A stretch of DNA of 21,323 bases from IMG/VR virus record IMGVR_UViG_3300031673_000563, positions 1 through 21,323 of that record; one strand, 5' to 3'. A program made the position numbers and the translations under genes. This document shows positions 13,050 to 15,313 of this stretch, piece by piece. The DNA is from a virus. The notes beneath the pieces are model-generated. The model ran no database searches. It worked only from the letters and a program-made list of their open reading frames with translations, and was not told the origin of the DNA. Within the stretch, counting starts at the first letter, position 1. Each line of letters opens with the position of its first letter.

Positions 13050-13319
13050 CTATTTCATATTTTCTAATTTTCGTTTGTTAACATTTGTTCCAAAAAGTCT
13101 TATTATAGTTTTTATATCTTCATATGAGTCTGGTAAAAAATAAAATGCAGCTCCCATTATAAATAGATTTTCTTCTGGAAAATAACTCACTAGGCATGGA
13201 AATTTTATGCCAAATATATCATCTTCCGTTATTTCTAAAATATAATGGTCATCATCTCTTAATTTAAATCCTAAATCAAGTAACTCTTTTTCTGTGGGCT
13301 TATAATTTATCTTTTTCAT
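13050..13319 (-). CDS. Hypothetical protein (89 aa).
   Basis: ORF track. 4-nt overlap with the upstream gene. Confidence 0.4.
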   Translation of the reverse strand: MKKINYKPTEKELLDLGFKLRDDDHYILEITEDDIFGIKFPCLVSYFPEENLFIMGAAFYFLPDSYEDIKTIIRLFGTNVNKRKLENMK

Positions 13320-13627
13320 TTTAATGCTAATGGTAAGTTACTTAATAATTTTTCTGTTCTTTCCCGGGGCTCAACACAAATCGCTGTCATCTGATTTCCA
13401 ATATCTGGCTCAAGAAAGATGTTATGATTTAAATATCTAATTTGAATTTTTGTTAAAAGTTTTTGAAGTTCATATTCATTTTCAACAGATAAAAATACTA
13501 AATACTTAGAATTTGTATTCCAATCTTTTGCGATTTGAGGATGTTTATGCTGAAATTCAATTGCAGCGTGAGCAGCCTGTAACATCTGTTGTCCTGGTGT
13601 CAAATCACGTCTTGTGATTACGTACAA
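13316..13627 (-). CDS. Peptidyl-tRNA hydrolase PTH2-like protein.
   Basis: VITRRDLTPGQQMLQAAHAAIEF matches the PTH2 signature (R-x-DL-x-G-x-x-x-AQ-x-x-HA). 103 aa is close to the PTH2 core size. Confidence 0.5.
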   Translation of the reverse strand: MYVITRRDLTPGQQMLQAAHAAIEFQHKHPQIAKDWNTNSKYLVFLSVENEYELQKLLTKIQIRYLNHNIFLEPDIGNQMTAICVEPRERTEKLLSNLPLALK

Positions 13628-13669
13628 TTTTTGATTAGTCTATTTCATAATGGCTATTTTTATTATATA

Positions 13670-14065
13670 TTAAAGTTCATTTAAAAATTTTGGATTTTGA
13701 TGAACAAAAGATTGTGTTTCTTTTTTCTTTTTATTTGGTTTGAATTCATCAGATAAATATTCTCCAAATTCACGTATCATATTTGTTTTAGCAAGAATAT
13801 GATAATTTTCATTTATGTCAAAATTATCGGCAAGTATATTCCATGCTACTCCTTTCGACATTCCTTTATTTACATTACTTATTATATTCCAATTTTTAAT
13901 ATTTGCTTTTGCATTATCAAACATTAATTTTAATTGCTCGTTTGTTATCTTTTGAGCAATTTGTTTTGCAAGATTTTTGTTCATTATTTTAAAATTTTTA
14001 TGATCCCTTATGACAATACTTACAATAAGGATTATCAAAAGAATCAGGAGAAGGCACATATTCAT
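13670..14065 (-). CDS. Membrane-anchored hypothetical protein. Its 5' end overlaps the HicB-like ORF by 68 nt in another frame, so the true start may be internal.
   Basis: N-terminal TM LLLILLIILIVSIVI. The overlap with 13998..14306 is unresolved. Confidence 0.35.
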   Translation of the reverse strand: MNMCLLLILLIILIVSIVIRDHKNFKIMNKNLAKQIAQKITNEQLKLMFDNAKANIKNWNIISNVNKGMSKGVAWNILADNFDINENYHILAKTNMIREFGEYLSDEFKPNKKKKETQSFVHQNPKFLNEL

Positions 14066-14306
14066 GTTTACCTGTCGGACTTTTAATACAAAATTCTTCC
14101 TGTTTATACTCTAAATTATATTTTAAAACATCATAAAGTGTGTTCCAAAGATTTTTTTGAGCTTCTTTAAGCGTTTCTCCTTCAGATGCTATATTAGAAA
14201 AATCTTTAAAAAATGCTGTATATCCGCCAACCTTTTGGTCTTTAACGTATATTTCTTCTCCAAGCTTTCCGTTTTTTATTTTAACGTTGTCTTTCATATC
14301 TTTCAT
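13998..14306 (-). CDS. HicB/UPF0150-family-like protein, the antitoxin fold of HicAB modules.
   Basis: GGYTAFFKDFSNIASEGETLKEAQKNLWNTL resembles the UPF0150 core (GGY-A-x-P-x-x-G-x-x-x-G-x-T-x-x-EA). No HicA-like partner is visible nearby. Confidence 0.45.
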   Translation of the reverse strand: MKDMKDNVKIKNGKLGEEIYVKDQKVGGYTAFFKDFSNIASEGETLKEAQKNLWNTLYDVLKYNLEYKQEEFCIKSPTGKHEYVPSPDSFDNPYCKYCHKGS

Positions 14307-14314
14307 TAATTAGT

Positions 14315-15313
14315 TTATAATAAATATATGTTTTCTTTTTTACAACTTTCTATAGTTTTTTGGGGCCATATACTTGATTGAACTTCACCAATATGTTTTT
14401 TTCTCAATAAAAACATACATAGTCGTGATTGTCCTATTCCTCCTCCTATACTTAAAGGTAATTCATTACTTAATATCAATTTATGAAATAACAAATCTTT
14501 TCTATCTTCACAATTAAGTAAATTTAATTGTTTTAATAAACTTTCTTTATTAACTCTTATACCCATAGAAGATATTTCAAATGCAGACTCAGTAACAGGA
14601 TTCCAAAAAATTATATCACCGTTTAAACCAAAATAATCTTCTTCGTTTAATGAACTCCAATCATCATAATCTGGAGCGCGATTATCATGAACTAATCCAT
14701 TAGATAATTTGTTGCCTATTCCTATAATAAAAACTGCTTTATGTAAATGAGCTATTTTATTTTCTCGTTGAATTGAATCTAAATTTGGATATTGATGTAA
14801 TAACTCCTCAGAATGAATAAATGTTATATGTTCTGGTAATTGTGGAATAAACTGCGAATATTTTTTGAATAAATTTTTTTCAGTATTTTTAATAGATTTA
14901 TAAATTAAGTTAACAGAATCTTTTAAAAATTTTATAGTTCTATCTTTAGATGTTAAATATTTTTCCCAATCCCACTGATCAACATATATAGAATGTAATG
15001 GACTTAATTTTTCATCTGGTCTTATTGCCCGCATATCAGTAAGAATGCCATATTTAGGTTTAATATCATAATATTTTAGTCTCAATCTTTTCCATTTAGC
15101 TAAAGACTGTACTATTGTAATTTTCTTATTTTTAATTGAATTAATTTTAAAACTTATAGGTTTCTCTGTGCCGTTCAAATCATCATTTATTCCGGTTTCA
15201 TCCAAAACCATTAAAGGTGAAGATATTTTTGTAAGATTAAGAGATTTAATTAATTCTTTTTCAAAATTTATCTTTATAAAATATAGTAATTCTTCAGTTT
15301 CAAGAAATGTCAT
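14315..15313 (-). CDS. asnA: Aspartate-ammonia ligase (asparagine synthetase A).
   Basis: Long collinear identity with E. coli AsnA as I recall it: SLAKWKR, RPDE-LSPLHS-YVDQWDWE, HSEELL, RAPDYDDWS, GLNGDI-WNPV-AFE-SSMGIRV and IGGGIGQSRL-M. 332 aa. Confidence 0.9.
   Translation of the reverse strand: MTFLETEELLYFIKINFEKELIKSLNLTKISSPLMVLDETGINDDLNGTEKPISFKINSIKNKKITIVQSLAKWKRLRLKYYDIKPKYGILTDMRAIRPDEKLSPLHSIYVDQWDWEKYLTSKDRTIKFLKDSVNLIYKSIKNTEKNLFKKYSQFIPQLPEHITFIHSEELLHQYPNLDSIQRENKIAHLHKAVFIIGIGNKLSNGLVHDNRAPDYDDWSSLNEEDYFGLNGDIIFWNPVTESAFEISSMGIRVNKESLLKQLNLLNCEDRKDLLFHKLILSNELPLSIGGGIGQSRLCMFLLRKKHIGEVQSSIWPQKTIESCKKENIYLL

Follow-up and report, generated by a model that had tools for sequence, protein, structure and literature searches.

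Linkage of an amber codon in the leader of a PTH2-like phage gene to a phage-encoded amber-suppressor tRNA

Proteins of the peptidyl-tRNA hydrolase 2 (PTH2) family are known from jumbo phages and from the tRNA arrays of cluster C mycobacteriophages (Iyer et al. 2021, PMC7824862; Morgado & Vicente 2018, PMC5966550; RaK2 ORF188, PMC3622015), and suppressor-gated translation of late genes has been published for recoded phages (Borges et al., bioRxiv 2021.08.26.457843). Here we analyze a PTH2-like gene and the nearby gene asnA for aspartate-ammonia ligase in a viral contig of 21,323 nucleotides (IMG/VR record IMGVR_UViG_3300031673_000563); this whole stretch of DNA is referred to as the window. 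The PTH2-like protein of the window belongs to the same subfamily as the proteins from jumbo and cluster C phages, with 36-40% identity to Bxz1 gp154 and Myrna gp84, and its gene is found in the same setting, i.e. together with phage tRNA genes and TROVE proteins. While the occurrence of PTH2 genes in jumbo-phage tRNA arrays is already known, an amber codon in the leader of the gene and the pairing of this codon with an amber-suppressor tRNA, tRNA(CUA), appear to be new. The papers on phage PTH2 (PMC7824862, PMC5966550, PMC3622015) make no mention of a 5' in-frame amber codon or of a pairing with tRNA(CUA), and no description of either was found in the literature searched; an earlier report elsewhere is possible. 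We consider it moderately probable that the interval contains two unrelated cargo genes and that translation of one of them, which encodes a PTH2-fold esterase, depends on a co-encoded amber suppressor.

The open reading frame (ORF) finder lists the PTH2-like gene as 13316..13627 on the minus strand, a form of 103 amino acids that starts with TTG. This start, which was listed for the original prediction, has to be replaced. The coding sequence begins at the ATG at 13648 and runs through an in-frame TAG; its 5' end reads ATG AAA TAG ACT AAT CAA AAA TTG. The same region was surveyed in the best 80 of 199 IMG/VR relatives, and the 82 loci of this survey reduce to 67 distinct genes with identities down to 40%. 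The leader TAG is common to the window and all four near-identical contigs, and it is also present in the loci L009 (59-61% identity) and L010-12 (73%) and in the huge phage LR756500 (53-55%). Altogether it was found in 66 of the 67 distinct genes, in 65 of them within codons 2-5 and in one at codon 9. Codon 3 is the most frequent position (34 genes), followed by codons 4 and 5 with 15 genes each; examples of such leaders are MK#, MKET#, MKDT#, MTH# and MCL#, in which # stands for TAG. No stop codon other than TAG was ever seen at this position. The base after the TAG is always a purine, A in 50 genes and G in 16. From the TAG to the RxD motif there is no ATG, GTG or TTG in 50 of 65 genes, which leaves most relatives without an alternative start that would include the first beta strand. 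Of 740 other ORFs from the same loci, 31 at most have an early TAG. The only one of these that was checked by hand, in the gene of L023 that resembles the major vault protein (MVP), turned out to be an upstream artefact. We also considered a second ATG AAA TAG, located after the PTH2 gene of LR756500, as a gated start; it was rejected because a stop closes this frame before the next ORF.

Downstream of the PTH2-like gene, at a distance of 1.06 kb and on the same strand, the window encodes a tRNA(CUA). ARAGORN labels this tRNA 'Pyl'; its anticodon is CUA, which makes it an amber suppressor. The cloverleaf has a minimum free energy of -26.8 kcal/mol (z -3.5). The data from the relatives reveal the same neighbourhood: in 65 of 80 IMG/VR loci the PTH2-like gene has a tRNA with anticodon CTA (in DNA letters) within 5 kb and on its own strand; 19 loci have it 44-410 nt upstream of the gene, and 40 have it 82-2000 nt downstream. 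At 60% identity the loci group into 25 clusters, at 50% into 12, and the tRNA switches sides. Because of the many clusters and the changes in side, the linkage between the PTH2-like gene and tRNA(CUA) must have survived rearrangement. The two loci without a leader TAG are also without tRNA(CUA). Beyond the metagenomic contigs, tRNA(CTA) lies beside the PTH2-like gene in LR756500, Bxz1, Myrna and ME3. In Acinetobacter phage ME3 the leader reads ATG ACT TAG ATT, and a tRNA annotated with 'anticodon CTA' lies 450 nt upstream. The mycobacteriophages Bxz1 and Myrna have (A/G)TG TAG GTG ACA and a tRNA(CTA) 306 and 130 nt downstream, respectively. The suppressor tRNAs vary widely in sequence from locus to locus. 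The amino acid that they carry could not be deduced from tRNA similarity, since the nearest types scatter over 15 amino acids. Together, the comparison of these loci establishes the anatomy of the leader and its linkage to a predicted suppressor, and it argues strongly that translation of the PTH2-like gene would depend on tRNA(CUA).

A separate observation concerns the more distant PTH2-like genes of Lak-B1 (L097, MK250020) and of LR745208 (L098), which adjoin a tRNA(UUA), an ochre suppressor. In Lak-B1 the frame upstream of the gene reads ATG AAT ATC TAA ATA and later includes an in-frame ATG; this arrangement resembles the amber leader with TAA in the place of TAG.

According to the mechanism that we propose, ribosomes would initiate at the ATG at 13648 and meet UAG at codon 3. 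Release factor 1 (RF1) would terminate synthesis after the dipeptide unless the phage tRNA(CUA) decodes the UAG. Amber suppression is classically efficient where a purine follows the UAG. Full-length protein would be made only when the suppressor tRNA out-competes RF1 at codon 3, and the output of esterase would consequently rise and fall with UAG read-through in the infected cell. Less firmly, the esterase is predicted to hydrolyse the ester bond of peptidyl-tRNA or N-acyl-aminoacyl-tRNA, and it would free tRNAs where these esters build up as termination at UAG is overridden or fails. In this way the enzyme might recycle tRNAs from stalled or dropped-off ribosomes. For jumbo phages a rescue of stalled ribosomes has been proposed as the role of PTH2 (PMC7824862), and it is plausible for the present hydrolase as well. 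More tentatively, the PTH2-like gene and the suppressor tRNA could form a self-contained circuit, in which the UAG senses the balance between suppressor and RF1 and the esterase feeds back on it. Such feedback might consist in a recycling or deacylation of the suppressor tRNA, or in the removal of peptidyl-tRNAs that accumulate after failed termination at UAG.

The PTH2 fold of the protein, which the original prediction proposed to check by a profile search, is well supported and comprises four strands and four helices. The ORF matches Pfam PF01981 with 34.4 bits (gathering score 23), and a profile of the phage family finds archaeal and human Pth2 chains in the PDB with E values between 3.5e-11 (2zv3) and 5e-4. 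The AlphaFold2 model has a mean predicted local distance difference test (pLDDT) score of 96.2 and a predicted template modelling (pTM) score of 0.88. A Foldseek search of the PDB returned Pth2 chains for all of the top 14 matches, with template modelling (TM) scores of 0.74-0.83 for the crystal structures. The protein is thus a member of the Pth2 fold and of the Pfam family. The signature that was proposed in the original prediction is present in the form RRDL-TP-G-QQM-LQAAHA, with two residues and not one between L and G. The archaeal and eukaryotic Pth2 structures 2zv3, 3erj, 1xty and 1q7s share the fold of the phage protein (TM scores 0.77-0.83), and the R-x-D-L strand and the Q-x-x-H-A helix motif are common to the canonical and phage families. 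The differences are considerable. Identity between phage and canonical proteins is only about 20-26%, the G-K-G-K loop is two residues shorter in the phage family and lacks the Lys, and a deletion of four residues follows the sequence E-P-D-I-G-N, which takes the place of D-A-G-x-T. The phage family has its own set of invariant residues, namely R6, D8, Q17, H20, E51, E73, D75 and T81. In S. solfataricus Pth2 the catalytic residues are said to be K18, D86 and T90, as reportedly found by Fromant et al. in 2005. HMMER pairs D86 with the invariant E73 and T90 with G77; a shift by two residues would pair D86 with the invariant D75. The alignment of the phage family contains no conserved Lys between D8 and H20.

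The subfamily is essentially restricted to phages. Among 185,579 species genomes it was detected in 11 contigs of metagenome-assembled genomes, and at least one of these is a mis-binned contig of a huge phage. An unusual architecture is seen in Stenotrophomonas phage RAS14 (L095, OP752703), where a 261-residue ORF at 2515..3300 has the PTH2-like domain in its C-terminal part. This ORF has no leader TAG, there is no tRNA within the 6 kb inspected, and a gene annotated as valyl-tRNA synthetase lies about 1 kb away, with the PTH2-like ORF on its upstream side. Locus L009 includes a second, weak PTH2-like stretch (5913..6107; 32% identity over 71 amino acids) in a region where a NUMOD3 endonuclease gene is called. 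The main PTH2 gene, in which the match starts at 6661, lies about 550 nt downstream of this stretch.

Several observations weigh against our interpretation. The loci are related to each other and the counts given above are not independent events. Fifteen of the 80 loci have no tRNA(CTA) within 5 kb; several of these contigs end just after the gene, but this is not true for all of them. In Bxz1 and Myrna a GTG directly follows the TAG, and GAAGG or GGAGG is found 7 nt upstream of it. Since this Shine-Dalgarno sequence is ideally spaced for the GTG, the TAG of these two phages may lie in an untranslated spacer, and their leaders are ambiguous. Also, TAG may be used more heavily in late genes beyond the 31.6 kb of sequence that was examined for the window's phage. 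On the side of the protein, the scores are below the equivalog cutoffs for Pth2 (NF003314, 27.2 bits versus 126; TIGR00283, 23.1 versus 82). The canonical Lys aligns to position 13 of the 103-residue form, where Q, Y, S, C or A may stand, and the canonical D-A-G-x-T aligns to residues that are invariant but different in the phage family. With the Lys lost, D-A-G-x-T replaced and the equivalog cutoffs failed, peptidyl-tRNA hydrolase activity is not assured and should be considered putative.

The same features are the basis for the alternative that survives best, albeit as an unlikely one. The protein may have the Pth2 fold without being a general hydrolase; the suppressor tRNA itself would then be its substrate or ligand, which the protein might for example deacylate in its aminoacyl or peptidyl form, and through its own UAG leader a feedback loop would arise that fixes how strongly amber codons are suppressed. 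The loss of the Lys, the family-specific set of invariant residues and the low equivalog scores are in agreement with this scenario, and so is the linkage of the gene to one particular tRNA in genomes that seem to use the standard code. On the other hand, the suppressor tRNAs diverge so widely among loci that a sequence-specific recognition beyond the anticodon is disfavoured, and some members of the family are located within large tRNA arrays.

The next question is whether the leader TAG is simply a glutamine codon of an ordinary code-15 phage, without any special regulatory meaning. There are arguments for this. The phage encodes a tRNA(CUA), and the recoding of TAG to Gln with the help of suppressor tRNAs is well documented for phages of Bacteroidota hosts. 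Furthermore, database homologues from Logan and ENA have a Q at the column of the TAG, whereas the JGI entries, which were translated with code 11, are shortened. We dropped this Q as a proof for Gln; the gene callers may have used code 15, and the argument is possibly circular. The codon usage of the genes themselves is difficult to reconcile with an ordinary Gln codon. The bodies of the same PTH2-like genes contain 356 CAA, 101 CAG and only 4 TAG codons; with TAG in 66 of 67 leaders but in 4 of 461 Gln-type codons elsewhere, it is not just another codon for Gln.

The genomes also provide little indication of a general recoding. Within the 31.6 kb of the window phage, no in-frame TAG other than that of the PTH2 leader is convincing. 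ORF coverage increases from 56.3% to 58.5% when TAG is read as sense, compared with 58.9% in a control in which TGA is read as sense. In 150 kb of LR756500 the gain with TAG as sense is again smaller than that with the TGA control. TAG acts as a terminator in the window, namely in the MVP-like gene, in orf89 (13050..13319) and in the ORF 7394..7591, and each of these stops has a TAA or TGA 0-13 codons behind it. In LR756500, 8 of 149 long ORFs end with TAG, and here TAA or TGA follows within 0-38 codons. Finally, ME3, Bxz1 and Myrna carry the pair of leader and tRNA, have an ordinary deposited annotation and are taken to be standard-code phages. In the light of these data we give little credence to a code-15 explanation. 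The window phage and the sampled part of LR756500 appear to use the standard code apart from the leader. The suppressor tRNA is hence not for a TAG-rich proteome in the parts seen, in which there is hardly any in-frame TAG, and its clearest predicted target is the adjoining PTH2-like gene.

A related observation was made for the MVP-like gene. Read-through of its TAG stop at 16074..16076 would add 13 residues before a TAA is reached, and a terminator-like hairpin (16040..16060, minus strand) follows the stop. The MVP-like protein would presumably be extended in cells that express the suppressor tRNA.

An alternative with a similarly small chance is that the TAG is not read at all. The sequence ATG-x(1-4)-TAG would then be a tiny upstream ORF with re-initiation nearby, at the TTG in the window, at GTG in the mycobacteriophages and at AUU, AUA or GUA elsewhere. 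The TTG is indeed present five codons after the TAG of the window, and the well-spaced GTG of Bxz1 and Myrna was mentioned above. The second base after the TAG is T in 57 of 66 genes, and the codon at this place is mostly ATN or GTN. However, a mini-ORF could end with any stop codon. Long ORFs of these phages end with TAA in about 87% of cases and with TAG in about 5%, so that an arbitrary mini-ORF would rarely stop with TAG, yet TAG is present in all 66 genes with such a leader. The codon after the TAG disfavours G as its third base (2 of 66 genes), which makes ATG and GTG rare there, and in the window this codon is ACT. The codons of the leader vary synonymously among relatives (AAA/AAG, AAT/AAC, CAT/CAC), and this drift indicates that the leader is translated. 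Relatives have TTA, CTT or CTA in place of the window's TTG, which is hence a Leu codon inside the translated leader. Re-initiation would also leave the tight linkage to tRNA(CUA) unexplained.

Reading through the TAG leads to a correction of existing annotations, in which gene callers place the start of the PTH2-like gene at a later TTG, GTG or ATG. In L010-12 the gene caller starts at an internal Met and loses the first strand together with the RRD motif. The GenBank entries for ME3_195, Bxz1 gp154 and Myrna gp84 are annotated as starting after the TAG, and elsewhere in the deposited jumbo-phage and cluster C annotations the gene is called hypothetical. The public N-termini disagree with each other (for example at L010, position 1602, and at L096, position 3004); JGI entries start at a later TTG or ATG and may lack the first strand.

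The second gene of the interval, asnA, is the bona fide aspartate-ammonia ligase gene that it had been predicted to be. The product matches Pfam PF03590 with 320.2 bits (E 1e-95, cutoff 27) and exceeds the cutoff of the NCBIfam equivalog TIGR00669 (371.3 bits versus 292.8). The product and E. coli AsnA (11as/12as; E 1e-93, 47% identity) align from one end to the other, such that residues 5-323 correspond to residues 7-325 of 11as, and the product also matches the PDB entry 9v83 over the full length (E 4e-105). All 98 columns that are invariant across the E. coli protein and 25 close homologues, mostly Bacteroidales-like, are kept in the phage protein. Among the conserved motifs are SLAKWKR, RPDE, YVDQWDWE, SSMGIRV and GGGIGQSR; RPDE, GGGIGQSR (motif 3) and the Arg of motif 2 are those that resemble class II synthetases. 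Two outcomes named beforehand as reasons to abandon the prediction, a PTH2-like ORF that fails profile and structure searches and a dead AsnA, were thus not what we found.

As expected, AsnA is unusual cargo for a phage. It is encoded on only 56 of 2.9 million IMG/VR contigs, many times at the contig end, for which reason host flanks are suspected in many of these contigs. There is no PHROG family for AsnA, and several of the 8 records that contain it in the phage collection are bacterial contigs. The complete huge-phage genomes LR756500-504, which carry the closest PTH2 genes, have no AsnA. The nearest relatives are chromosomal genes from Bacteroidales with 62-65% identity over the full length; the phage copy differs from these and from the E. 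coli gene in that it lies on a phage contig of about 26% G+C, within a phage gene block. In the closest IMG/VR relative, L013, orf240 and orf102 have homologues that directly adjoin each other, and in the window asnA sits exactly between these two ORFs. This arrangement and the lack of AsnA from all 85 loci with PTH2-like relatives identify it as a lineage-specific insertion. Judged from these comparisons, asnA is an intact, host-derived gene of the Bacteroidales type that was inserted in this lineage only. The downstream flank, orf102, shows a weak match to a HicB-like antitoxin (phrog_497, E 8e-4) and is conserved in 7 relatives.

The original prediction had combined the two genes into one functional set, and this part of it was not borne out. 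The least tenable of the alternatives, and a very improbable one, is that AsnA and the PTH2-like protein support translation together, by asparagine supply and ribosome rescue, against a shut-off of the host or defences aimed at tRNAs: the two genes are intact, they lie 670 nt apart on the same strand amid tRNA genes, no terminator-like site is seen between them on the minus strand, and ribosome rescue was proposed for jumbo-phage PTH2 by Iyer et al. 2021 (PMC7824862), but AsnA is present in 0 of the 85 PTH2 loci and PTH2 in 0 of the 56 viral contigs with AsnA, the complete genomes LR756500-504 do without AsnA, asnA interrupts an otherwise conserved MVP-PTH2-orf124-tRNA(Sup) block, and ARAGORN and Rfam find no tRNA-Asn in the window. 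No result of this analysis connects AsnA with tRNA biology. Most likely asnA would be an auxiliary metabolic gene of the ordinary kind, by which more asparagine is provided; a role in Asn supply is plausible because Asn makes up 6.9% of the residues in the window ORFs and its codon AAT is heavily used.

The features of the window are listed in Table 1. The PTH2-like gene is conserved together with the amber-suppressor tRNA, members of the orf124 family and the genes for the MVP-like and TROVE proteins. Homologues of orf124 (n=23) share the invariant pattern MET...LRxxYAAYxLLRGK, and in at least 16 loci the homologue ends 30-200 nt before the tRNA(CTA). No match for orf124 was found among Pfam, PHROG or PDB folds, and its AlphaFold2 model has a pLDDT of 82. 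Homologues of the MVP-like gene (62-66% identity) adjoin PTH2 in L023, L027 and L028, and a TROVE gene is located within 5 kb of PTH2 in 7 relatives. The order in L027 is MVP-like gene, PTH2, orf124, tRNA(CUA), orf240 and TROVE, with PTH2 directly after the MVP-like gene. The MVP-like and TROVE genes share a block with the tRNAs and PTH2, and the pair is syntenic in L009, L023, L027 and L028. In eukaryotic vaults MVP forms the shell and the TROVE protein TEP1 is an inner component. Viral MVPs have been reported in a 2023 preprint (10.1101/2023.11.10.566534), which makes no mention of tRNA, TROVE or hydrolase neighbours.

Table 1. Position of the features of the window; the last column gives the basis of the assignment or a remark.
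Feature	Position	Strand	Basis or remark
NAD salvage genes, nicotinamidase and NadE	1056..1667, 1945..2817	-	profile matches
Deaminase	3258..3725		dCMP-deaminase/ComEB-like
TROVE/Ro60-like RNA-binding protein, 566 aa	4927..6627	-	PF05731, 24.7 bits; phrog_850 'RNA-binding protein', E 7e-26
Homing-endonuclease-type genes (four)	6653..7333, 9823..10857, 11362..12006, 20248..21165	-	interspersed with tRNA genes
tRNA-Gln(UUG)	11153..11226	-	ARAGORN
tRNA(CAU), initiator-like	12060..12140	-	Rfam 38.4 bits, gathering score 29; missed by ARAGORN
tRNA(CUA), amber suppressor	12183..12256	-	ARAGORN; Rfam 51.5 bits
orf124, helical protein	12585..12959	-	between PTH2 and suppressor tRNA in closer relatives
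PTH2-fold gene, phage-specific subfamily, 110 codons	13316..13648	-	PF01981, AlphaFold2, reading frame
In-frame amber codon TAG, codon 3 of PTH2-like gene	13640..13642	-	followed by A
orf102, downstream flank of asnA insertion	13998..14306	-	weak HicB-like match
asnA, aspartate-ammonia ligase, 332 aa	14315..15313	-	PF03590, TIGR00669, PDB matches
orf240, upstream flank of asnA insertion	15329..16051	-	kept alongside MVP-like gene in relatives
Major-vault-protein-like gene, 822 aa	16074..18542	-	MVP_shoulder, E 1e-26; Vault_3; lies upstream of PTH2 in closer relatives
tRNA-Leu(CAA)	19888..19973	-	ARAGORN
tRNA-Glu(UUC)	21230..21305	-	ARAGORN

The four tRNA genes that had been predicted within 7 kb of asnA are found by ARAGORN at distances of 2.1-5.9 kb, and Rfam adds a fifth. 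The latter, tRNA(CAU), follows 42 nt after the suppressor tRNA. Its anticodon stem carries three G-C pairs at the base, U1 and U72 form a mismatch, and 11 nt are inserted in the variable region, features which make it look initiator-like. The tRNA-Gln(UUG), which comes after the suppressor tRNA in several relatives, reads the preferred Gln codon of the window (CAA 134, CAG 44).

The window is a complete JGI contig of 21.3 kb with a G+C content of about 28-29%, and nearly all of its genes are on the minus strand. An identical sequence was found in ENA and JGI metagenomes, among them one contig of 57.7 kb. PTH2-like relatives are carried by viral contigs of 320-460 kb and by the huge phages LR756500-504, which suggests that the window is a fragment of a huge phage. 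Since the nearest AsnA relatives are chromosomal genes of Bacteroidales, the host of the phage is probably a member of this order. The gene content is phage-like and accessory. It includes four or five homing endonucleases; the four that are tabulated comprise two of the GIY-YIG type (one with NUMOD3), one with DUF7487 and a C2H2 finger and one that is DUF559/Vsr-like. Homing endonucleases amid tRNAs are also known from mycobacteriophage tRNA arrays (PMC5966550).

The nicotinamidase is PncA-like with 152 bits, which is under the cutoff of 174 bits, and genes for nicotinate phosphoribosyltransferase (NAPRTase, PncB) and a radical SAM protein are situated just outside the window (L005, 11966..13123). 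The NAD salvage genes are only a few kb away from the MVP and TROVE genes; vaults have been tied to NAD hydrolysis in a 2026 preprint. The deaminase was considered as a tRNA deaminase, but this identity was dropped in favour of the dCMP-deaminase/ComEB-like assignment. A megablast search with 5.1 kb against the phage collection returned no match. At E <= 0.1, Rfam detected only tRNAs; Y RNAs, HDV-like and theta ribozymes and other non-coding RNAs were absent from its matches. A scan of this AT-rich DNA for sigma-70 promoters gave 39 sites, near the shuffle expectation of 30.9 ± 5.7.

The leader amber codon offers a concrete and testable target for the amber-suppressor tRNA of phages that otherwise seem to use the standard code, and it would tie a putative tRNA-ester hydrolase to the control of stop-codon read-through. 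If the interpretation is true, a dedicated target gene exists for the orphan tRNA(CUA) that is encoded by Bxz1, ME3 and similar phages, and the cassette could be a first step toward a genome-wide recoding of TAG. Cultured systems are at hand with Acinetobacter phage ME3 and the cluster C mycobacteriophages, of which there are more than 200 isolates. AsnA is a clean case of a rare, host-derived gene for amino acid synthesis in a phage and is no evidence for a translation module.

A similar principle operates in prfB, the gene for release factor 2 (RF2). An early in-frame UGA in this gene allows autoregulation by +1 frameshifting, in which the gene senses its own product. The likeness is that in both cases an early in-frame stop codon in the gene of a translation factor would turn the efficiency of termination into a level of expression. 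The difference is that the escape in the phage gene would be via a dedicated suppressor tRNA, and that the product is an esterase and not a release factor.

The closest parallel among phages is provided by the recoded phages of Borges et al. (bioRxiv 2021.08.26.457843), a report in which the terms 'Hydrolase' and 'Pth' are absent. As in the present locus, the phage brings its own suppressor tRNA, and an in-frame stop makes a gene depend on this tRNA. The module of the recoded phages, however, consists of a suppressor tRNA, an aminoacyl-tRNA synthetase as well as a release factor in the standard code, and many late and lysis genes are gated by it. In contrast, the gating proposed here would concern a single tRNA-esterase-like gene next to the tRNA, with the stop within the first ~5 codons and in a sampled genome that is essentially standard-code.

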